A stretch of 64,000 bases of DNA from an uncultured Acidobacteriota bacterium (GTDB taxonomy: Bacteria; Acidobacteriota; Vicinamibacteria; Fen-336), in assembly GCA_963742595.1 (NCBI GenBank), contig CAVUMT010000001.1, positions 1,767,633-1,831,632 of the forward strand. Direction: 5' to 3'. A program made the position numbers and the translations under genes. The notes below the pieces were generated by a model. It saw nothing but the letters and a program-made list of their open reading frames with translations. It was not told the origin of the DNA and ran no database searches. Numbering within the stretch: the first letter of the stretch is position 1; each line of letters begins with the position of its first letter. Below are positions 23,312-32,555 of this stretch, in pieces.

Positions 23312-24995
23312 ATGAAGGGACGAATCACGGCCGCTTGGGCGCTGGCGACCCTCCTGCCCCTGGCCGGTTCGGCCTGGGCGCAGAGTTCGGCGTCCGGGTC
23401 GACTGAGGAAAAGGGATCCACGAGAACGGTCAAGAAGGAAGACATCAAGACGTGGACGATGACCGTCGACGGAAAGGAATGGAGCGTACGACCGGCCGCC
23501 CCCACCGTCGACGGGGACACCGGCCTCTTCCGACTTTCCTCGGCCTACACGCTTCCGCGGCGCGCGTTCTCCTTGAGCCTCGGCCGCGACAACTACGACC
23601 GCGATCCCAAGGGGATCGACTACTCCGAGCACGGGCTCAACGTCGGCTACGGCGCGACGGATCGAGCTCGAGCTCTTCGGCCACATCGGGGTGCAGCACC
23701 GGACGAAGGCCCACTATCTCTTCCAGCCGGGCTTCTGGAACGAGGCCCCCTTCATCAACTCGGGCTGGGAGACGGGCTTCGGCGACATCAGGATCGGAGC
23801 CAAGTACAAGATCCTCGACGACTACCTGGGCGAGGGCGTGGGCCTCGCCTTGAAGGGCAAGGTCAAGTTCGGCACCGCGGACGAGGCGAAGGGCCTCGGC
23901 ACGGGAACGACCGCGTTCGGGGTGGACCTCGTCCTGTCCAAGACCATCAACTACGCGGTGGACCTCCACGCGTCGATCGGCTACGAGGTCACGGGAGATC
24001 CGGACGGCGTCGATCTCGCCAACGCCTTCAAGTGGGGCGTCGGCCTGAACATTCCCGCCTGCCGCTGGTTCCAGCTCCAGGCCGAGGTGACGGGCAAGGT
24101 CTACGGCGACACGGCGCCGCACCAGACCGATGCCACCGACCTCATCATCGGCCCGGCGGTCTGGTTCGCCAAGGGCTGGTTCGTCCGCCCGGCTTACTCC
24201 TACGCGCTCAACTACGACGACCACGGGGTGGGCGGGTCCACGGCCAAGAAGTCCGGCATTCAATTTCGCGGTGGGCTACCACGGCGGGACGCCGTGCTGC
24301 GAGGTGTACGTGCCGCCCCCGCCGCCGCCGGCACCGGTCAACCGGCCGCCTACGGTGTCCCTCGACTGCGTCAAGGACACGGTTCTCCAGGGTGAGACGA
24401 CGCCCTGCAACGCGACCGCGGCCGACCCCGACGGCGACCCCCTGACCTACACCTGGTCCACGAGCGCGGGGCGCATCACCGGCACCGGCGCCAACACCAC
24501 CCTCGATACCGGCGGCGTTCCCTGCGACACCACGATCACGGTGACCGTGCAGGTCTCGGACGGCCGCGGCGGCACGGCGAGCGCTATCGGACTCGCGTCC
24601 GCGTCCGCTGCCCGGAGAAGGCGAAGCCCGAAGCGGTGACCTGCACGTCCGGCGGCTTCCCGCGGAACCTGGCCCGCCTGAACAACGTGGACAAGGCCTG
24701 CCTGGACGACGTGGCCAGCAAGCTCCGGTCCGATCCGCGCAGCCGCGTGGTCGTCGTGGGCCATGCCGACAGCTCCGAGCGCTACGCCGACGTCACGGGC
24801 CGCAAGCGCGCGGAGGCGGTGAGGAACTACCTCGTCAAGGAGCGCGGAGTCGAAGAGGCCCGCGTCACCGCGAAGAGCGCCGGCGCCACCAAGCCCCTCG
24901 ACACCGGCAAGACCGCCGCCGCCCGGGCCAAGAACCGGCGCGTCGACGTGATCTTCGTGCCGGAGGGCGCGACCGTGCCGGAGGACGACGACTAG
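23312..24995 (+). CDS. OmpA-family outer membrane protein (signal peptide, beta-barrel region, PKD-like domain, C-terminal OmpA peptidoglycan-binding domain), about 3 frameshifts
   Basis: Signal MKGRITAAWALATLLPLAGSAWAQ. PKD-like DPDGDPLTYTWSTSAG. OmpA_C motifs VVVVGHADSSERYADVTGRKRAEAVRNYLV...NRRVDVIFV. Confidence 0.7.
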
Positions 24996-25016
24996 CGCGT
25001 CGCTTCCGTTTCCTTC

Positions 25017-25051
25017 AGGGGCGCGGCCTTCGGGTCGCGCCCCTTTTTTCT

Positions 25052-25052
<1 letters not shown>
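25017..25052 (+). terminator. rho-independent terminator (11-bp GC stem, TTCG loop, T6 run)
   Basis: agggGCGCGGCC ttcg GGTCGCGCCCC followed by TTTTTTCTT immediately after the ompA-like stop. Confidence 0.8.
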
Positions 25053-26281
<1,229 letters not shown>

Positions 26282-26364
26282 GACCGTCTCCCATTCTCGG
26301 CCGGCGGCGCACGAGGGGCAACGCCGTGCTTCACACGCGGAGCGGGCATGCTCCAAAATCGCTC

Positions 26365-26393
26365 TTGACAGTTTGGAGGTCGGTACCTACATT
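26365..26393 (+). promoter_or_regulatory. near-consensus sigma70-type promoter (TTGACA-17 nt-TACATT) driving a short transcript toward the tRNA island
   Basis: ctcTTGACAgtttggaggtcggtaccTACATTgggg in the AT-richer rtcB / tRNA-island intergenic region. Exact 17-nt spacer. Confidence 0.55.
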
Positions 26394-26399
26394 GGGGTG

Positions 26400-26637
26400 C
26401 TGAGACTCAAGTGACGATTCGAATTCTCAATTCGAAGTGCACGTCGGTGGCGAGGCCATCTTATTTGGCCGCGCTACGACCCGTCGTCGGCGTGTCGATA
26501 TCCATGGCCGAGCTCTGGATCGACCGGCTGAGCGGCGCGCTGGATAGCGGGAAGGAGGGCGAAACGCCCTAAAGGGTCTGCACTCATTGAGAAACAGGCC
26601 TTCTAGGGCGATCCCCTTGAAGGCCTTTTTTTGTTTT
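26400..26637 (+). ncRNA. candidate small RNA (~235 nt) bounded by the promoter above and an intrinsic terminator
   Basis: No convincing CDS (only a 22-aa ORF at 26504-26572 without an SD). Perfect 8-bp inverted repeat ttcgaatt-ctc-aattcgaa (26418-26436). Possible long-range pairing tctcaat / attgaga and gtgca / tgcac closing about 130 nt. Confidence 0.3.
26596..26637 (+). terminator. rho-independent terminator (aggccttc ... gaaggcct stem followed by TTTTTTTGTTTT)
   Basis: 8-bp stem, 15-nt loop with internal ggg/ccc, T7 run on the plus strand only. Confidence 0.7.
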
Positions 26638-26794
26638 GGTCTGCACTCCGCGGAAATACCGGAGCCAGGCCGGAGGGAGGTTGTGTCTTCGCGACGGGAG
26701 AGTCGTTAGGTGCCGTGGGCTCACCAGCTCGAAAGAGCGGGGTCTTTGACAACCGACGCATGTCGATGGGCCGGTGAACGACACCGGTCCATGT

Positions 26795-26868
26795 TCGGCC
26801 TGGGTGTGGAGGAAGCATCCCACGCTGCCCGCGTGGGGGGACGGGTTCGATTCCCGTAGGCCGATCCA
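26795..26868 (+). tRNA. tRNA-Gly(GCC)-like, non-canonical (D-arm does not fold canonically; pyrimidine at position 37)
   Basis: Acceptor tcggcct/aggccga. T-arm acggg-ttcgatt-cccgt. Anticodon stem ccacg/cgtgg with loop ctGCCcg. CCA encoded. Confidence 0.45.
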
Positions 26869-26870
26869 GA

Positions 26871-26945
26871 GCGAGTGTCGTCCAACGGCAGGACCTCGGG
26901 CCTCCAACCCGATGACGACCGGTTCGAATCCGGCCACTCGCTCCA
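26871..26945 (+). tRNA. tRNA-Gly(UCC) with C at position 33
   Basis: Acceptor gcgagtg/cactcgc. D-stem gtcc/ggac. Anticodon stem tcggg/cccga with loop ccTCCaa. T-loop ttcgaat. Discriminator t, CCA. 2 nt after the previous tRNA. Confidence 0.6.
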
Positions 26946-26951
26946 CGTTCC

Positions 26952-27021
26952 CCCTCTGTCAACGCAGCATGCCGGGCCCTTGACCCGTGCGGTGGTGGTT
27001 CGAGTCCACCCGGAGGGACCA
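26952..27021 (+). tRNA. degenerate 70-nt tRNA-like element (acceptor and T-arm intact; D and anticodon arms do not fold canonically)
   Basis: Acceptor ccctctg/cggaggg with one G-U pair. T-arm ggtgg-ttcgagt-ccacc. Discriminator a, CCA. The central 40 nt give no assignable anticodon. Confidence 0.3.
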
Positions 27022-27049
27022 GTAGCGAATCCGTTCATGGCCACCATCT

Positions 27050-27125
27050 CGGCTCGTGGCGCAATCGGTAGACGCGGCACGTTCAGACCGTGCAGATCGG
27101 GGTTCGAATCCCCGCGAGCCGACCA
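27050..27125 (+). tRNA. tRNA-Leu(CAG)-like with Leu-type D-arm but no long variable arm (class II converted to class I)
   Basis: Acceptor cggctcg/cgagccg. D-arm tggcgcaatcggtagacgcg closely matches bacterial tRNA-Leu. Anticodon stem gcacg/cgtgc with loop ttCAGac. Variable region only agat. T-arm cgggg-ttcgaat-ccccg. A73, CCA. Confidence 0.5.
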
Positions 27126-27155
27126 TCCCCGCGTCACGCGCGGGACCATCCCGGG

Positions 27156-27229
27156 GGGGACATAGTCGAAGGGAAAGACACCGCGTTGTCAGTGCGGCAG
27201 TACGGGTTCGAGTCCCGTTGTCCTCGCCA
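27156..27229 (+). tRNA. tRNA-Asp(GUC)
   Basis: Acceptor ggggaca/tgtcctc. U8. Anticodon stem ccgcg/tgcgg with loop ttGTCag. T-arm acggg-ttcgagt-cccgt. G73, CCA. Atypical D-loop gaagggaaa. Confidence 0.7.
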
Positions 27230-27245
27230 GGATGGGCTCGTCTGT

Positions 27246-27321
27246 TGCGGAGGGAAGGGACGGCGACCTTGGAGGTCTCATAAGCCTCGAAATGCGGGTT
27301 CGATTCCCGCCTCCGCCACCA
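27246..27321 (+). tRNA. tRNA-Met or tRNA-Ile2 (CAU)
   Basis: Acceptor tgcggag/ctccgcc with a 1:72 mismatch. Anticodon stem gaggt/gcctc with loop ctCATaa. T-arm gcggg-ttcgatt-cccgc. A73, CCA. Confidence 0.6.
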
Positions 27322-27323
27322 AT

Positions 27324-27397
27324 AGCCGGTTCGTCCAATGGCAGGACAGCGGTCCTACAAACCGCATACGGGGGTTCGATTCCCTCACCGGCCACCA
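27324..27397 (+). tRNA. tRNA-Val(UAC) with C at position 33
   Basis: Acceptor agccggt/accggcc. D-stem gtcc/ggac. Anticodon stem gcggt/accgc with loop ccTACaa. T-arm ggggg-ttcgatt-ccctc. A73, CCA. 2 nt after the previous tRNA. Confidence 0.6.
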
Positions 27398-27405
27398 GTC
27401 TCGAT

Positions 27406-27481
27406 GGTGAGCGTAAGATAACGGCCATTCGGGGAGGCTGTGTCCCTCCCAGTGCCGGTTCGATTCCGGCCGCTCACCCCA
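27406..27481 (+). tRNA. tRNA-His(GUG) with G-1:C73
   Basis: Extra 5' G before acceptor gtgagcg/cgctcac with discriminator C (the His identity pair). Anticodon stem ggagg/cctcc with loop ctGTGtc (U37). T-arm gccgg-ttcgatt-ccggc. CCA. Confidence 0.65.
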
Positions 27482-27487
27482 GAACAC

Positions 27488-27562
27488 GTCGACGAAGTGT
27501 TACCGGAAGCACGGCGCCCTCGTAACGCGCAAGCGCGGGTTCGACCGCCGCCGTCGGCTCCA
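27488..27562 (+). tRNA. tRNA-Thr(CGU)
   Basis: Acceptor gtcgacg/cgtcggc. D-stem gtgt/gcac. Anticodon loop ctCGTaa. T-loop ttcgacc with a G:G mismatch at 53:61. U73, CCA. Confidence 0.55.
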
Positions 27563-27566
27563 CTCC

Positions 27567-27642
27567 GACCAGCGAGCTTGTGTGGTCATAGCGCTCGGCT
27601 GAAGCCCGAGAGAACGTGGTTCGATTCCACGGCTGGTCACCA
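27567..27642 (+). tRNA. tRNA-Phe(GAA)
   Basis: Acceptor gaccagc/gctggtc. D-arm agcttgtgtggtcatagc. Anticodon stem ctcgg/ccgag with loop ctGAAgc (G37). T-arm cgtgg-ttcgatt-ccacg. A73, CCA. Confidence 0.65.
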
Positions 27643-27646
27643 ACCT

Positions 27647-27760
27647 TCGCTCACGCTTGTCAACCAAGGCGTGAGCTACGGTTGGCAAGCCACGCAAAGG
27701 TTGTCCGCCGTAGCATTCGCGAAGGCGGACCCAACATTCCACTCTTTCGTCAGCACTCTC
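27647..27760 (+). other. highly structured leader region between the tRNA array and the MopB gene (stacked stable hairpins)
   Basis: Hairpin gctcacgc-N12-gcgtgagc (27647-27676). Hairpin gctacgg-N26-ccgtagc. Hairpin tccgcc-N14-ggcgga. Downstream tRNA T-arm remnant ggcggttcgattgaatcga at about 27797-27815. Confidence 0.4.
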
Positions 27761-27923
27761 AGACGGCGCTAAGAAGCTGAAAAGCGGTGCCGTTACGGCG
27801 GTTCGATTGAATCGATTTCCGTCGTACGCGATTCCTTCCGGGAAGAACAGCAGGTGCTGCGGCCACTCGGTACGCTTCACCCTCTGGAGACCGAGGCGAT
27901 CGGACCTACAATGGCAGCAGGCC

Positions 27924-29951
27924 ATGTCGATCCAGATCGTTCGCGGCGCCTGCGGGCACGACTGCCCGGACACGTGCAGTTGGATAGTGGAAGCGCAGAA
28001 CGGTACTGCCGGGAAGCTGTACGGCGACCCGGCGCATCCGTTCACCCGCGGCACCCTCTGCGCCAAGGTTAACCATTATCTCGAGCGCGTCTACCACCCC
28101 GATCGCGTCCTCCATCCGCTGAAGCGCGCGGGCCGCAAGGGCGAGGGACAGTTCGTCCGCGTAACCTGGGACGAGGCGCTGACCGAGATCGCGGCGCGGT
28201 GGAAGGCGATCGTCGAGGAATCGGGCGCCGAAGCCATCCTGCCCTACAGCTCGGCGGGCGTGCAGGGGCTGATTCAGCAGGCCTCGCTCGACATGCGGCT
28301 GTTCGGGTCGATGGGGTGCAGCGGCCTCGATCGCAACATCTGCGGCGCGGTCGCTTCCGCGGGCCTCACGTCCACGATTGGAACCGGGACCGGAATCGAT
28401 CCGGAGGAAGTTGTCCATAGCCGGTACGTCGTGTTGTGGGGGACGAACACGATCGTCACGAACCTCCACTTCTGGCCGTTCGTGCGCGAGGCGCAGCGTC
28501 GGGGCGCGAAGATCATCGTGGTGGATCCGGTCCGAACCCGCACTGCGGAAGCGGCCGACTGGCACCTTGCGATCAAGCCGGCCAGCGACGCGGCGCTGGC
28601 GCTCGCGATGATGCACGTCATCGTCCGCGACGGCCTGGTGGATCACGAGTACGTCTCGCGGTATGCGGTCGGGTACGAGGCGCTCGCGGAGCACGTGCGG
28701 CAATACGCTCCGGAGAGCGTGGCGAACACGGTCGGCCTGCCGGCGAGCGACATCGAGCGATTCGCGCGCGAGTACGCGACGACGCAGCCGTGCCTGCTGC
28801 GGCCGCTCATCGGCCCCGAGCACCATCGCAACGGCGCGATGCAGTTCCGTACGATGGCCTGCCTTCCGGTACTGACCGGAGCATGGAGGCATCGCGGCGG
28901 CGGCCTCGCCCGGTCCACGCACAAGCTGCAGTTCGCGGTGCTGGCCAAGGATCGCGTGGAAATGCCGGAGGTGCACAAGCCCGGCGTCCGCGTGCTGAAC
29001 ATGCGCGATCTCGGCAAGGATCTGTGCGACCTGCGGCCACCGATCCGATCGCTCATCGTCTATGGCGCCAATCCGATGGTGTCGATGCCGAATCAGAGCC
29101 GGATTCGCGAAGGCCTCCTGCGCGACGACCTGTTCGCGGTCGTGCAAGACCTGTTCGTCACGGACACCGCGTTGTACGCCGACTACGTGCTGCCGGCCAC
29201 GAGCCAGATCGAGCATCTGGATCTGTCACCCGCCTGGGGGCACCTGTATCTGGCGTTGAATCGCCCGGCCATCGCGCCGCGCGGCGAGTCGGTGTCGAAC
29301 ACCGAGCTCTTCCGACGGCTGGCACGGGCGCTGGGCCGCACGGAGGCGTACTTGTTCGAGAGCGACGAGTCCATGCTGCGCGCGGCGCTGGCGAGCGGGC
29401 ATCCGTGGCTCGACGGGATCACGTACGAACGGTTGTGGAAACAGGGATACGCGCGTCTGAACCGTCCGGAGGACTGGCGCCCCTTTGCAAACGGCGGGTT
29501 CCCGACGCGGAGCGGGAAGGCAGAGCTCTACTCCGAGCCGCTGCGCGAGGCCGGGCACGACCCGCTGCCATCGCCCGGCGAGATTCGATCGAACGGCGGC
29601 CTGCAGTTGATCACCGGGAAGCAGCTGCACTTCCTGAATTCGGGATACAGCAACCAGGACCGGCATCGCCGGCGGGCGGGCGAGTTGTTCATCGAGATCC
29701 ACCCCGACGACGCGAGGACGCGAGGGGTCGCCAACGGGGATTACGTGTCCGTCCGAAACGGGAGCGGCGAAGTGCGCGCCGTCTGCCGTGTATCGGACCG
29801 CGTCCGGCCGGGCGTGGCCTGGATGCCATTCGGCGGCTTCACGGATGCGGGTGGCAAGCGCCTCTCGGTCAACGTCCTCACCCAGGAGGAGCCGACCGAT
29901 TGGGGCGGCGGAAGCGGTTTGTACGATGCGTTCGTAGAGGTTGAGCGCTAA
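27924..29951 (+). CDS. molybdopterin-dependent oxidoreductase, MopB family (assimilatory nitrate reductase / formate-dehydrogenase-like catalytic subunit), cytoplasmic
   Basis: N-terminal 4Fe-4S motif CGHDCPDTCSW. Molybdopterin_binding and molydop_binding domains throughout. 675 aa, intact. No Tat signal and no partner subunit genes. ATG at 27924; the ORF-track TTG at 27807 lies inside the tRNA-remnant region. Confidence 0.75.
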   Translation: MSIQIVRGACGHDCPDTCSWIVEAQNGTAGKLYGDPAHPFTRGTLCAKVNHYLERVYHPDRVLHPLKRAGRKGEGQFVRVTWDEALTEIAARWKAIVEESGAEAILPYSSAGVQGLIQQASLDMRLFGSMGCSGLDRNICGAVASAGLTSTIGTGTGIDPEEVVHSRYVVLWGTNTIVTNLHFWPFVREAQRRGAKIIVVDPVRTRTAEAADWHLAIKPASDAALALAMMHVIVRDGLVDHEYVSRYAVGYEALAEHVRQYAPESVANTVGLPASDIERFAREYATTQPCLLRPLIGPEHHRNGAMQFRTMACLPVLTGAWRHRGGGLARSTHKLQFAVLAKDRVEMPEVHKPGVRVLNMRDLGKDLCDLRPPIRSLIVYGANPMVSMPNQSRIREGLLRDDLFAVVQDLFVTDTALYADYVLPATSQIEHLDLSPAWGHLYLALNRPAIAPRGESVSNTELFRRLARALGRTEAYLFESDESMLRAALASGHPWLDGITYERLWKQGYARLNRPEDWRPFANGGFPTRSGKAELYSEPLREAGHDPLPSPGEIRSNGGLQLITGKQLHFLNSGYSNQDRHRRRAGELFIEIHPDDARTRGVANGDYVSVRNGSGEVRAVCRVSDRVRPGVAWMPFGGFTDAGGKRLSVNVLTQEEPTDWGGGSGLYDAFVEVER

Positions 29952-30102
29952 GTTAGGGTCCAGGCCCTTCCACATACTGTCGAGCACTTTGCGCGACTCG
30001 CGCAGGATGTCTAGACCGGCGCGCGGTGATCTTCACGCAGCGCCGCGGCTTTCCGCCGCGCTCAGGGGTGGAATCGCTCATCGAGGACGTCAACAGGCCC
30101 TT

Positions 30103-30267
30103 CTATTCGAGGCGGCGTAGAGTGATGTACACCGCAGCTGGTGCGACGGTCCTTCCGGTTCGTCGGTGGATTTCGTCCACGATGGGCACACCATAGACGC
30201 CATCGCCGAGGTGGAGAATCGCGAGGAGGACCATGTGCTCGAACTCGCCGAGCGCTTCCCGAGTCAT
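30103..30267 (-). pseudogene. PadR family transcriptional regulator interrupted by an in-frame TAG after the HTH
   Basis: MTREALGEFEHMVLLAILHLGDGVYGVPIVDEIHRRTGRTVAPAAVYITLRRLE-TAG-KGLLTSS...; the PadR-like sequence continues downstream of the stop. Confidence 0.55.
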
Positions 30268-30436
30268 GCCGCACCCGCGTTCAGCGATGTCTGGTCCAAC
30301 AACGACAAAAACATACAACGCTAATAATAAGGACGGCCGGCACGGTTTGTTCACGGTGCGTTCCGAAGCGAGTTCACACGCCTGACCCATTCGCCAATCC
30401 GGTTCCAACTCGCGAAAATGCGGCTCACCAACCGCT

Positions 30437-30511
30437 CCCCTCGTAGGCTAATGCATAGACCACCGGGTTACGAACCCGTCAGTGGAGGTTGGAGTCCTCC
30501 CGAGGGGACCA
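30437..30511 (+). tRNA. tRNA-Arg(ACG) with G at T-loop position 56 and a D-loop lacking GG
   Basis: Acceptor cccctcg/cgagggg. U8. Anticodon loop ttACGaa. T-arm ggagg-ttGgagt-cctcc. D-loop aatgcat (possible C19:G56 swap). A73, CCA. Confidence 0.6.
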
Positions 30512-30543
30512 TCCCCGCTTCGTCTAACGCACAGACGCATCAT

Positions 30544-30635
30544 CCCGGTCGGGAGGCCAGCGCCTCGAGCGGGCTTATACCCCGTTGCGCCAGATCAGCG
30601 CCTAGATCCAGGGGCAGCACCTGGGGCCGGGACCA
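30544..30635 (+). tRNA. class-II-sized (92 nt) tRNA-like element with non-TPsiC T-loop; anticodon unassigned (possibly UAU)
   Basis: Acceptor cccggtc/ggccggg with a G-U pair. A73, CCA. T-stem ccagg/cctgg with loop ggcagca. Candidate anticodon stem gcggg/cccgt with loop ctTATac. Confidence 0.25.
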
Positions 30636-30636
30636 C

Positions 30637-30726
30637 GGAGAGGAAAGGGCGAGCGGGGAGCCCAGCACACTGCTAACGTGCCGAGGCCAGGCGGCCGCGA
30701 GAGTTCGAATCTCTCCCTCTCCGCCA
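30637..30726 (+). tRNA. tRNA-Ser(GCU), class II
   Basis: Acceptor ggagagg/cctctcc. D-stem gggc/gccc. Anticodon loop ctGCTaa. Long variable arm cgaggccaggcggccgc. T-arm gagag-ttcgaat-ctctc. G73, CCA. Starts 1 nt after the previous element. Confidence 0.65.
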
Positions 30727-30750
30727 TTGACCTCGGGTGGCTCCTGAGTC

Positions 30751-30810
30751 AACTCCGTCCGGACGGAGTTGCTTCAGAAACTACTTGAGGTGACTCGTTC
30801 CGGAACGAGT
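30751..30810. repeat. two tandem perfect palindromes with TCCGGA cores (aactccgtcc|ggacggagtt and actcgttcc|ggaacgagt)
   Basis: 10-bp and 9-bp perfect inverted repeats 22 nt apart; the second ends exactly at the 5' end of tRNA-Cys. Confidence 0.6.
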
Positions 30811-30884
30811 GGTGGGTTGGCCGAGCGACGAGGCGCTGGCCTGCAAAGCCAGTTAGCGGGGTTTGAGTCCCCGACCCACCTCCA
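30811..30884 (+). tRNA. tRNA-Cys(GCA) with U at T-loop position 56
   Basis: Acceptor ggtgggt/acccacc. U8. Anticodon stem ctggc/gccag with loop ctGCAaa. T-arm cgggg-ttTgagt-ccccg. U73, CCA. D-loop without GG. Confidence 0.6.
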
Positions 30885-31029
30885 CCACGGATCCGAAACA
30901 GAGCTCAGCGGCGAGGCCGCGAACGAGCTGATACCCCCGGGCCGGCGGTGCGTGTCGCCCCACTTTCGTGGTCGGCGGTGCGCATTCCGCGTACGGGATC
31001 TAACGAAGGAGGTGTCAGGACTGGAGATG

Positions 31030-31054
31030 GCGGGTTCGACACCCGCCATCACCC
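31030..31054 (+). other. tRNA 3'-half fragment (T-arm plus acceptor 3' strand) without a matching 5' half
   Basis: gcggg-ttcgaca-cccgc followed by catcacc c. No complementary 5' acceptor within 80 nt upstream. No CCA. Confidence 0.35.
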
Positions 31055-31125
31055 ATTGGCTAGCTCAGTGGCAGAGCACCGAGCCATTAACTCGGGGGTC
31101 GCAGGTTCAAATCCTGCTCCAAAGT
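31054..31125 (+). tRNA. tRNA-like gene with canonical D- and T-arms but unusual anticodon loop (ccATTaa) and imperfect acceptor stem; no CCA
   Basis: D-arm tagctcagtggcagagca. Anticodon stem ccgag/ctcgg. T-arm gcagg-ttcaaat-cctgc. Acceptor cattggc/tccaaag pairs at 5 of 7 positions. Possible pseudo-tRNA or att-site remnant. Confidence 0.35.
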
Positions 31126-31445
31126 CGTGAGTCGTGAGTGCGGTCTCCGGAGGGCGGCCGTCGTGATCCGCCGGCCGATCGCGGGCGCTCGTGAGGTCCG
31201 CGGACGGCAGCGCGCAGAGGCGTCCTGAAGCGCGCGGATACCGGCCCCGCCCAAACACCCCGATCCCCCGGGGCGCTGCGCGTGACGCTCGGTCGAGGTC
31301 GCGCGTGGCCCTCTCGGGTGACGGGTGGATTCGGCGGGGCCTCAAGTCGCGCTCCATGCCCGAGGCGTGGCGGCCGACGTCCCGCCCTTCGGGGACCATC
31401 TTGTCGTCAGGCAGGCGATTGGATAGCGAGAAAGAGAGGTGCCCA

Positions 31446-32555
31446 TTGTGGGTTCTATTCCGTCGTTTCAAGGTTCGTGAGAACGAGCGCGGTCTCCTGT
31501 TCAAGGACCGCGATTTCCAGCGTGTCCTCGGTCCCGGCCGCCGCTTCGTCTGGGACCCCCTGCTGAACGTCCATGCCGACGTCGTGTCGGTGCGCGACGT
31601 GTGGCTCGACCACCGTGACCTGGAAGTGATCGTCCGCTCGGGCGCGCTCGAGGGAGAGGCGAAGGTCCTCGACCTCAAGGACCACGAGCGTGCCGTGGTG
31701 TGGGTGGACGGCCGCGTGGAGGCGGTCCTCAAGGCGGGCCTCTACGCGCTCTGGACGGTCTTCCACGACGTGCGGGTCGAGGTCTTCGACGCCCGCACGG
31801 TCCGCTTCGAGCACCCCGACCTCGCGGTCATCACCCAGGCGCGGAACGCACAGGCGCTCCTGGAGGCGGTGACCGTGGAGGCGGGCCACGCCGGTCTCTT
31901 CTTCAAGGACGGACGCCACGAGGCAACGCTCGCCTCGGGCGCCCACGCCTTCTGGAAGGGCTTCGGCAAGGCCCGCATCCTCGACGTGGACCTCCGCGAG
32001 CAGGTCGTGGACGTGGCCGGCCAGGAGATCATGACCGCGGACAAGGTGACGCTGCGCCTGAACGCGGTCGTGACCTTCAAGGTCGCGGATCCCCTGAAGG
32101 CCGTGAGCGCGGTGGAGGACTACCGTCAGGCCCTCTACCGCGAGGCGCAGCTCGCGCTGCGGGGCGTCGTGGGCACGCGCGTGCTCGACGCGCTCCTGGG
32201 CGACAAGGACGCGGTCGCCCGCGAGCTCGACGGCCTCGTCCGCGGCCGAGTGGCCGGCTTCGGTGTCGAGGTCGTGGCCCTCGGCATCCGCGACGTCATC
32301 CTTCCCGGCGAGATGAAGGACCTCATGAACAAGGTGACCGAGGCCCAGAAGGCGGCCGAGGCCGCCCTCATCACGCGCCGCGAGGAGACGGCGGCCATGC
32401 GATCGCAGGCCAACACCGCGAAGATCCTCGAGTCGAGCCCCACCCTGATGCGTCTGCGTGAGCTCGAGGTCCTCGAGAAGGTCGCGGAGAAGGCCAACCT
32501 GACGGTCGTCCTCGGCGAGAAGGGTCTCGCCGATCGTGTCGTCAAGCTGCTCTGA
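31446..32555 (+). CDS. SPFH/band 7 (stomatin-like) domain protein
   Basis: TTG start preceded by GAGAGG. ...FRRFKVRENERGLLFKDRDF..., two band-7 repeats, C-terminal coiled region. The ORF-track extension upstream to 31191 has no start codon support. Confidence 0.7.
   Translation: MWVLFRRFKVRENERGLLFKDRDFQRVLGPGRRFVWDPLLNVHADVVSVRDVWLDHRDLEVIVRSGALEGEAKVLDLKDHERAVVWVDGRVEAVLKAGLYALWTVFHDVRVEVFDARTVRFEHPDLAVITQARNAQALLEAVTVEAGHAGLFFKDGRHEATLASGAHAFWKGFGKARILDVDLREQVVDVAGQEIMTADKVTLRLNAVVTFKVADPLKAVSAVEDYRQALYREAQLALRGVVGTRVLDALLGDKDAVARELDGLVRGRVAGFGVEVVALGIRDVILPGEMKDLMNKVTEAQKAAEAALITRREETAAMRSQANTAKILESSPTLMRLRELEVLEKVAEKANLTVVLGEKGLADRVVKLL

Follow-up and report, generated by a model that had tools for sequence, protein, structure and literature searches.

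The second of two tRNA gene clusters in a 64-kb stretch of DNA from an uncultured Acidobacteriota bacterium contains several units that depart from the standard tRNA form, and it raises the question of whether these units are errors, scars and decay products or structures kept by selection. The whole 64-kb stretch is called the window throughout, all coordinates refer to it unless another locus is named, and the metagenome loci or contigs with which it was compared are numbered in the form L046. tRNA genes were detected with ARAGORN and Rfam covariance models, and protein domains with Pfam. ARAGORN called 13 tRNA units in two clusters (26795-27642 and 30437-31126), all of which lie on one strand, together with two units that it did not call. 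The 13 include the last unit of the second cluster, a tRNA-like element named Y, which follows a shorter tRNA-like element, X. The Arg(ACG), Ser(GCU) and Cys(GCA) genes that an initial annotation had proposed for the second cluster were all among the calls. With a probability of about 75%, we regard this cluster as the tail of a conserved tRNA operon of the L-array type, which holds compensated tRNA variants along with the tRNA-like elements X and Y and would have a spare-tRNA role.

The 19:56 elbow pair of the Arg and Cys genes

Two genes of the cluster differ from the conserved G19:C56 tertiary pair that joins the D-loop to the T-loop. Both in the sequence and in the ARAGORN drawing, Arg(ACG) has G56 in its T-loop (TTGGAGT) and a D-loop without GG (AATGCATA), and Cys(GCA) has U56 (TTTGAGT) and likewise a D-loop without GG, (G)AGCGACG(A). 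The Arg(ACG) elbow is reversed, as its D-loop reads G18 C19 and its T-loop U55 G56, and the Cys(GCA) elbow pair is A19:U56. The initial annotation had read these loops as a compensatory change that was selected and not a product of error.

To survey the pair, the D- and T-loops of 390 unique tRNAs from homologous arrays were parsed, among them 55 unique Arg and Cys genes. C56 was present in 360 of the 390 array tRNAs, and G56 was confined to Arg genes. Positions 19 and 56 formed a Watson-Crick pair in 50 of the 55 Arg and Cys genes (C19:G56 in 23, G19:C56 in 23 and A19:U56 in 4), while the other 5 were in other states. In a control of 10,000 shuffles the mean number of paired genes was 21.9 and the maximum 36; none of the shuffles reached 50. 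If the loops of the window were peculiar to its assembly, orthologous genes should be canonical; instead, L046 and many other loci bear the same G56 and U56 loops. Since pairing lay far above the shuffles and the orthologues are non-canonical, covariation of 19 with 56 is supported, and the proposed compensatory change stands.

The C19:G56 state occurs in 23 unique array Arg genes that represent five acceptor-stem lineages and three anticodons. Among Arg genes, a D-loop with ..G-C-A.. goes with a TTG... T-loop and a D-loop with ..G-G-A.. goes with TTC...; one Arg(CCG) gene combines G-A with TTT.... Among Cys genes, CG-G accompanies TTCGACT and CG-A accompanies TTTGAGT, with three array Cys homologues in the A:U state and seven in the G:C state. 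A single Cys lineage (acceptor GGTGGGT) contains G:C, A:U and U/C states, and the mismatched states (A/C and C/C, plus G/U in one Asp gene) look like intermediates when the loops are compared. G18 and U55 are retained, as are A20 in Arg, U73 in Cys and G73 in Ser. The housekeeping genes for Cys, Gly, Asn and Glu on contigs of related metagenome-assembled genomes (MAGs) have the canonical form and sequences far from those of the array, and a housekeeping Cys gene of Vicinamibacteria has GG and C56.

C19:G56 and A19:U56 are heritable, structurally compensated variants, and elbows of these two kinds with visible intermediates are new. The changes would preserve a flat Watson-Crick pair at the elbow, so that both folding and elbow stacking would be preserved with it.

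The 92-nt UAU unit and the terminal units X and Y

The slot between the last Arg gene and Ser(GCU) holds a 92-nt unit. The features first noted in it were all present: a good acceptor stem (CCCGGTC/GGCCGGG), A73-CCA, the T-loop GGCAGCA and a UAU triplet in the loop CUUAUAC. Its minimum free energy (MFE) fold is a five-arm cloverleaf ending in ACCA, with a 7-bp acceptor stem, a 5-bp D-stem closed by the tetraloop CAGC, a 6-bp anticodon stem, a 5-bp T-stem and a long variable arm whose V-stem has 4-6 bp. The unit was missed by ARAGORN, and in a scan of a 1-kb slice no match to the Rfam tRNA (RF00005) or tRNA-Sec (RF01852) model covered it at E <= 10. L046, L061, L070 and L088 have copies that are identical or nearly so, and the copy in L113 is 86% identical. 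In five distinct sequences all 27 cloverleaf pairs were kept (135 cells), compared with 31-49% paired in slid controls, and four pairs had undergone compensatory change (two of them in the anticodon stem and one each in the acceptor and the T-stem). A covariance model of the unit found six full copies and two truncated ones (L053 and L084, with the loop CUCAUAC), and nothing more of full length in the ~400 kb of related loci searched. In L063, L083 and L095 the slot is filled by a canonical 74-nt tRNA-Ile(UAU), the two kinds of unit being mutually exclusive. This swap suggests that the 92-nt unit would decode AUA.

Acidobacteria are known to have irregular tRNAs and polycistrons (Mukai et al. 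2017, PMC5389517; review PMC7609411). Allo-tRNAs, which originally surfaced as tRNA-Sec false positives, have UAU as their commonest anticodon, and five-stem-junction drawings have been reported for the UAU group (PMC5389517; PMC7609411). The 92-nt unit resembles allo-tRNA(UAU) in its acidobacterial or soil origin, its UAU anticodon and its place in a polycistron with other tRNAs, and it has the long variable arm, the 6-bp anticodon stem and the long D-stem with a tetraloop by which allo-tRNAs are recognized. Compared by description and not by sequence, the two differ in the acceptor branch (7/5 against 8/4 or 9/3), in the discriminator (A73 against G/U73), in the T-loop, in the lack of a match to a tRNA-Sec or tRNA model and in the tRNA-Ile(UAU) slot that the unit occupies. 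Because its acceptor branch is 7/5 and not 8/4 or 9/3, the unit lacks the feature that defines an allo-tRNA; its potential eighth acceptor pair is G:G. The compact core of tRNA-Pyl offers a second parallel (PMC7609411): in the 92-nt unit, too, the D-loop is very small and lacks G18G19, the T-loop lacks T-Psi-C and the anticodon stem has 6 bp. Unlike tRNA-Pyl, the unit bears the anticodon UAU and a long variable arm, and its acceptor and D stems are two nucleotides apart; there are no pyl genes, and the likeness is a resemblance only. The unit is a conserved five-stem tRNA(UAU), a heritable and structurally compensated variant, and its 7/5 five-stem form is new.

Unit X had been described as a bare T-arm and 3' acceptor fragment with no 5' half. 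The T-arm and the 3' strand are as described, but the 5' half is not missing: GGAGATG (31023-31029) pairs at 6 of 7 positions with CATCACC (31047-31053) around the T-arm (31030-31046). Since this 5' acceptor strand abuts the T-arm, X is a complete 12-bp acceptor/T minihelix. Across the loci compared, X has a long cloverleaf-like form in 15 and the form of a T-loop minihelix in 17, and in the rest it is absent or has no T-loop. The long form has an "anticodon" stem with a loop of 3-7 nt, and the L046 copy folds as a cloverleaf.

Unit Y, the last of the cluster, shows both in the sequence and in the ARAGORN drawing what had been reported for it, namely textbook D and T arms, the loop CCATTAA, a 5/7 acceptor stem (with two mismatches) and no CCA. 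Its body is nearly invariant among 54 unique homologues. The D-, anticodon and T-stems are 96-100% paired, except for the pair that closes the anticodon loop (44/54); the anticodon and T-stems contain compensatory changes and the D-stem is invariant. The acceptor is a stub of 3-5 bp, in which pairs 4/5-7 are kept, 1:72 is formed in 9/54 (17%) and 2:71 in 17/54 (31%). The homologues inspected encode no CCA, and of the 54 sequences 24 have T at position 33 and 23 have C. The triplet occurs in 26 different forms, to which loop-length variants are added; its three positions are as variable as their flanks, and positions 32, 37 and 38 are conserved. Between the window and L046 the triplet differs at all three positions (ATT vs GAG), and the 3' flanks are identical over 10 nt. 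For three close pairs of Y sequences, this one included, the anticodon differs at 3/3 positions and the 3' flanks at 0-1 of 10. A search for a cis partner of the triplet, either complementary or identical and at a fixed offset between -400 and +450, gave nothing above shuffles.

Given its acceptor, its 3' end, its position 33 and its unconserved anticodon, Y is not a canonical elongator tRNA, and to judge from their sequences neither X nor Y would be chargeable in its present form. A tRNA-like unit with so highly variable a triplet is new. X and Y are also independent of the tRNA array, as loci of the L052 type have Y without an array. Because they are present where the array is absent, X and Y are conserved elements near the SPFH gene and not scars. 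At many loci other than the window (e.g. L066, L081, L085, L092, L103 and L109), a copy of the 5' acceptor strand of Y (e.g. GTTGG, ACTGG) stands downstream of Y, within ~10 nt of its 3' acceptor strand (CCAAC, CCAGT), and by eye the two copies co-vary. The repeated strand could form an alternative hairpin that competes with the acceptor stub.

Known RNA families were considered for the 92-nt unit, the leader of the array, the conserved "anchor" block ahead of X, and X and Y, and were rejected, as all matches (YrlA, Acido-1 on the wrong strand and tRNA-Sec) were sub-threshold. Over X and Y (31022-31088; L046 7086-7182), YrlA reached 22.5 and 24.5 bits where its gathering score is 69, and Acido-1, on the opposite strand, reached 25 bits against 50. 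These matches probably merely reflect tRNA-like hairpins. X and Y are similar to the YrlA Y RNAs of rsr-yrl-rtcBA loci in being apparently non-chargeable tRNA-like modules, near rtcB/rtcR in the window's clade, with weak Rfam matches. Unlike YrlA (RF02553), they have no long Ro-binding stem, their matches stay at 22.5-24.5 bits, and at most loci they are linked to SPFH and not to rtc. No Ro/Rsr (TROVE) gene was found among the called genes of the five RtcB-linked loci or the scanned window open reading frames (ORFs), a sample of 38 picked from the total by a strict filter on codon-position G+C. X and Y do not belong to the YrlA family of Y RNAs.

The array family and the copy in the window

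A degenerate search pattern derived from the anchor block retrieved 61 further soil-metagenome contigs, which were then oriented. The shared gene order is Trp Tyr Gly Gly Thr Lys Leu Leu Asp Ala Met Val His Pro Gln Asn Lys Ile Thr Phe (Thr Glu)..., followed at the distal end by one to four Arg genes, the UAU slot, Ser(GCU) Ser(CGA) ... Cys Gln(UUG) and then the conserved block and the terminal tRNA-like unit. Spacers in these arrays measure a few to tens of nt. ARAGORN called 0 to 24 genes per array, and the same locus holds 0, 2-5, 12 or 17-24 of them depending on the contig. All units of the window's second cluster recur in independent metagenome contigs.

In 63 of 66 loci the slot of the array lies between a unit of promoter, leader and terminator and a block of anchor, X, Y and long leader, ahead of an SPFH/Band_7 gene, which encodes a membrane protein. 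The SPFH gene is downstream in 50/50 loci with enough sequence, and the terminator motif is present in 38 loci, either at the head of the array or, where the array is absent, ~125 nt before the anchor. Since two conserved non-coding elements flank it, the array occupies a fixed slot. At the other three loci the array is inverted and upstream of the leader. These inverted arrays (L053, L073 and L093) belong to a more distant clade with SPFH proteins 56-65% identical, and adjoin a FadB-like gene upstream of the leader promoter, which suggests either independent placement or inversion at the same locus.

The promoter scan found a single upstream promoter-like site in the window, a sigma-70-like TTGACA-17-TACATT at 26365-26393. 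The leader of ~200 nt is conserved, and its terminator hairpin with a T-run (26597-26632) is nearly invariant; the leader gave no Rfam match above threshold. Within the leader unit (26365-26632), GTGAC and CAATTCGA are conserved motifs and GGGCGAAACGCCC is a covarying hairpin. TAA or TAG stands at a fixed 23-28 nt ahead of the terminator. A possible 22-aa leader ORF (26504-26572; MAELWIDRLSGALDSGKEGETP) is conserved in a subset alone, and its 3' part doubles as a covarying hairpin. The sequence around the leader stop resembles the 3' half of the terminator and may form an antiterminator.

L-arrays are spread by horizontal gene transfer and induced by translational stress, and in cyanobacteria rtcB is a co-regulated neighbour; the Anabaena trn operon is induced when translation is impaired (PMC8421152). 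A 2021 survey lists Acidobacteria among the phyla without L-arrays (Santamaria-Gomez et al. 2021, PMC8421152). The acidobacterial family has many co-oriented, closely spaced tRNA genes that potentially form one operon, and it is patchy among close relatives, with frequent gain and loss. The size that we used for an L-array was about 15-43 tRNA genes. As in the trn operon of PCC 7120, tens of co-oriented and close-spaced genes cover most amino acids, the array is patchy in close relatives with frequent insertions and deletions, protein genes are embedded or linked, rtcB is in the neighbourhood, and the sequences diverge from those of housekeeping tRNAs. Unlike that operon, the acidobacterial family sits in a fixed chromosomal slot that runs from the leader and terminator to the SPFH leader, has a leader terminator instead of TrcR-type repeats, and includes reversed or altered 19:56 pairs, tRNA-like elements at its end and the five-stem tRNA(UAU); it showed no HNH homing endonuclease. 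L-arrays and irregular acidobacterial tRNAs were already known. What is new is an array family in a phylum listed as without L-arrays in that survey, and its fixed leader/SPFH slot.

RtcB was considered as a universal partner of the array and rejected, as it was found in the window's clade alone. It is upstream solely in the window, L046, L048, L049 and L052, RtcB or RtcR upstream is limited to this clade, and outside the clade the upstream genes are unrelated. L048 and L049 (RtcB 91% identical) have a short array between Band_7 and rtcR-rtcB-rtcA, and L052 (RtcB 84% identical) has the terminal tRNA-like unit without any array. The rtcR-rtcB-rtcA set is complete in relatives (L048 5723-9767, L052 8524-12263), whereas the window (24995-26360) and L046 retain rtcB alone. 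A protein 100% identical to the window RtcB exists (P0001, 409 aa).

A further element was seen in relatives of the window and not in the window itself. This is a structured element of ~58 nt, of which ACGGGACGACTCCGC...CTCGGGGTC is one version among several; it contains a long hairpin that covaries and is inserted at one and the same point, between T55 and C56, in the T-loops of array tRNAs. It is present in L048 (7486-7543 and 7627-7684, coordinates of the reoriented, reverse-complement copy and not native ones), and also in L049, L093, L066/L067/L076/L078 and L068/L100/L107. Its hosts include Gly-GCC, Leu-CAG and Cys-GCA genes, the flanking tRNA halves look intact, and some of the loci carry rtcR-rtcB-rtcA. 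In the folds of these insertions no bulge-helix-bulge motif was evident and the long conserved hairpin was seen. The insertion could be a T-loop-targeting mobile element or an intron.

The features of the locus in the window are collected in Table 1. Along the window, rtcB on the minus strand is followed by cluster 1, the molybdopterin oxidoreductase gene, cluster 2, the SPFH/Band_7 gene and then genes for PQQ-type beta-propeller proteins. Window G+C is ~70%, and the other genes identified by Pfam are ordinary chromosomal ones (cytochrome oxidase, ACIII, Dxr, UppS, DapA, PdxJ and others). The host of the array is a bacterium of the Vicinamibacterales (Acidobacteriota), and the array is chromosomal. 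Phages offered no source for it: a phage GenBank collection gave weak generic tRNA matches to unit Y and nothing else, and pattern scans of IMG/VR for the 92-nt unit, the Arg T-arm and the anchor gave nothing.

Table 1. Position of the array and of its adjoining features in the window
Feature	Coordinates	Strand	Basis and remarks
rtcB (RNA 3'-phosphate/5'-OH ligase)	25052..26281	-	Pfam RtcB, E = 1e-131; divergent from array promoter
Promoter, leader and terminator before array	26365..26632	+	Promoter scan, terminator motif, leader alignment
Proximal array part	26795..27642	+	9 ARAGORN tRNAs: Gly, Gly, Leu, Asp, Met, Val, His, Thr, Phe
Degenerate Lys(CUU)-like unit of proximal array	26952-27021	+	No ARAGORN call
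Inserted block between Phe and Arg	27643..30436	+	Molybdopterin oxidoreductase gene 27807-29951 (Pfam)
tRNA-Arg(ACG), encoded CCA	30437..30511	+	ARAGORN; Rfam tRNA 47.1 bits
92-nt non-canonical tRNA(UAU)	30544..30635	+	MFE cloverleaf; A73-CCA
tRNA-Ser(GCU), canonical class II, G73-CCA	30637..30726	+	ARAGORN; slot filled likewise in most arrays
Structured spacer, two hairpins	30727..30810	+	Fold -42.9 kcal/mol, z = -5.2; conserved in L046
tRNA-Cys(GCA), U73-CCA	30811..30884	+	ARAGORN; Rfam tRNA 53.1 bits
Conserved non-coding anchor block	30885..31022	+	Alignment; search pattern matched from 30985; no Rfam family match
Unit X, short form (minihelix)	31023..31053	+	Fold z = -3.7; T-loop TTCGACA; CCA not encoded
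Unit Y, tRNA-like	31054..31126	+	ARAGORN "Asn(ATT)"; Rfam tRNA 46.4 bits
Conserved 5' leader (~320 nt) and SPFH/Band_7 gene	31127..32555	+	Pfam Band_7; coding sequence ~31446-32555, start inferred

L046 is the contig of the nearest retrievable RtcB relative (94% identical) and has the same neighbours (BNR, PD40, two PQQ genes and Band_7). Between Band_7 and rtcB it carries a single unbroken array of 22 ARAGORN tRNAs plus the same uncalled units, and no oxidoreductase. Because this syntenic array is unbroken, the two window clusters are one array, split between Phe and Arg by an insertion of 2.8 kb. The oxidoreductase gene has 45 relatives in MAGs of Vicinamibacterales/Acidobacteriota, with identities of up to 95% in protein and 93% in DNA; its DNA is 85-93% identical to genes of Vicinamibacterales MAGs, and homology ends at the gene ends (27901-29941). 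At none of these 45 loci were flanking tRNAs, an array or a neighbour in common with the window found, and the gene is therefore an insertion. The 2.8-kb block takes the place of the interior of the unit that lies between Phe and Arg in L046.

The gene order of the proximal part agrees with L046, but the window array is without Trp, Tyr, Leu(GAG), Ala, Pro, Gln, Asn and Ile. Its Lys(CUU) unit has a 5-nt deletion in the D-arm and an anticodon loop altered to CCCTTGA. At 26640-26795 the leader is fused to the apparent 3' end of a Tyr gene, so Trp and Tyr have been lost from the window copy. The neighbouring OmpA-family gene encodes one 559-aa product in L048 and is represented by two ORFs in the window (23691-24395 and 24636-24995). 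The trailers after Leu(CAG) (27126-27150) and Arg(ACG) (30512-30543) both start with ACCA-TCCCCGC and form small hairpins, that of Leu(CAG) ending in ACCA (CCCGCG-TCAC-GCGCGGG-ACCA); they may be mini-units or processing signals.

Function of the array and competing explanations

In the explanation that we favor, the sigma-70-like promoter would drive transcription into the CCA-encoding genes when the leader terminator, acting as a gate, is read through, and their transcripts would mature into a supernumerary set of tRNAs. On the model of the Anabaena L-array, the set would serve as a reserve for conditions that compromise the ribosome or the normal pool of tRNAs. X and Y are most likely tRNA-shaped signals for processing or stability, recognized for example by RNase P, where the tRNA transcript meets the SPFH mRNA. 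If Y is a processing signal, its anticodon triplet would be free of decoding constraint. tRNA-shaped processing signals are known in longer transcripts, such as the tRNA-tufB operon of E. coli and mascRNA in MALAT1. As in those cases, a non-decoding tRNA-like fold would mark the boundary between a non-coding RNA and a downstream mRNA; unlike them, X and Y are two tandem modules, with conserved loop positions around a free triplet.

Several points weigh against this explanation. The role of X and Y in processing is conjectural and leaves two features of Y unexplained, namely the conservation of loop positions 32, 37 and 38 and the divergence of the triplet in close pairs (3/3 vs 0-1/10 in the flanks). 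The tRNA set would be supernumerary by comparison with contigs of related Vicinamibacteria MAGs, which hold canonical and very different Cys, Gly, Asn and Met genes, and not by comparison with the source genome's own tRNA set. Five of the 55 Arg and Cys genes have mismatched 19:56 pairs, and adjacency to rtcB is restricted to the window's clade. Finally, the window copy is eroded, with genes missing, Lys-CUU degenerate and rtcR/rtcA absent, and may be heading toward loss.

The last of these points leads to a first alternative, in which the array is a silent, horizontally acquired relic under relaxed selection and its odd units are stages of pseudogenisation. Such decay would account for the interruption of the window copy and its many absent L046 genes, for its Lys-like unit, for the 5/55 genes mismatched at 19:56, for the truncated 92-nt copies in L053 and L084 and for the loop indels in some Y copies, and published L-arrays are often poorly expressed (PMC8421152). 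It would not account for the compensatory changes at 19:56, in the 92-nt unit and in the stems of Y, which are a signature of structural selection. Nor does it fit the identity elements that are retained (U73 in Cys, G73 in Ser and A20 in Arg), the CCA encoded in the window's Arg, Ser, Cys and 92-nt units, or the presence of near-identical units in contigs whose neutral flanks have diverged. We consider decay an unlikely explanation.

The behavior of the Y triplet suggests a second alternative, to which we assign the same low standing. Here anticodon-directed ribonucleases would meet in Y, perhaps together with X, a decoy or sentinel in the shape of a tRNA, the anticodon of Y would diversify under selection, and the array would supply divergent replacement tRNAs, with cleavage feeding SPFH expression or, in the window's clade, Rtc repair. 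A body that is nearly invariant across 54 sequences and yet carries 26 triplets is consistent with this, as are the 3/3 differences at the anticodon of three close pairs with 0-1/10 in the flanks, the conserved positions 32, 37 and 38, and the unchargeable state of Y, in which a change of triplet would be costless for decoding. Moreover, rtcR-rtcB-rtcA adjoin the block in L048 and L052, and RtcR is reported to be activated by cleaved tRNAs in Salmonella (PMC7790460, PMC10159003). However, the close pairs are few and not independent in phylogeny, a plain lack of constraint would account for the loop-length variants and degenerate loops, Rtc genes are absent at most loci, no toxin gene was identified nearby, and the cis search described above gave the triplet no partner. 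A compound version of this idea is a little less probable again. It would make Y a new RNA element of the SPFH leader, a ribonuclease bait or sensor whose triplet diversifies faster than the neutral flanks, and the array a structurally distinct replacement set (reversed elbows, a five-stem AUA decoder) whose T-loop insertions are removed by cleavage and RtcB-type ligation.

A third alternative was that of the initial annotation, which saw in half-tRNAs and decayed 3' ends the footprints of integrase-mediated insertion, so that the half-tRNA and the CCA-less unit would be attL/attR-type remnants of insertion into a tRNA gene. As at tRNA-gene att sites, a tRNA-like sequence stands beside a variable and apparently acquired block. 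Array content varies greatly among close relatives and three loci are inverted, so the region is recombinationally active, and the window holds the foreign 2.8-kb block. Unlike at att sites, no integrase accompanies the units here and no 3' tRNA segment is duplicated: no integrase or transposase Pfam domain was found among the 38 selected window ORFs or the called genes of L046, L048 and L052, no second copy of the minihelix exists in the 64 kb at <= 3 mismatches, and direct repeats in the window are solely generic T-arm similarities, none of them att-like. The supposed half is a complete minihelix. The array is upstream of X and Y, set off from them by a conserved block of 140 nt, and is not downstream of a tRNA 3' end. 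X and Y stand at the same position in >50 loci, including those without an array. The proposed footprints are accordingly abandoned, and we hold the scar explanation to be very improbable. A sequencing or assembly artefact specific to this genome is refuted for practical purposes, because independent metagenome contigs share the same non-canonical bases.

A conserved tRNA operon with compensated variants and terminal tRNA-like elements therefore remains our preferred explanation, and it has consequences beyond the window. It reveals a large, previously undescribed family of long tRNA operons in the Vicinamibacterales, which are among the commonest soil bacteria. The replacement of G19:C56 by C19:G56 and A19:U56 is an experiment of nature on a tertiary pair that ranks among the most conserved in tRNA, and bears on the elbow shape that RNase P, the ribosome and other elbow readers need. 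The five-stem tRNA(UAU) escapes the standard tRNA finders and exposes a gap in detection. Annotators should not take units like X and Y for integration scars, as array-terminal "debris" of tRNA-like form can belong to the conserved elements of an mRNA leader. Y, with its free-running anticodon, is a clean case of a tRNA fold kept for a non-decoding purpose.

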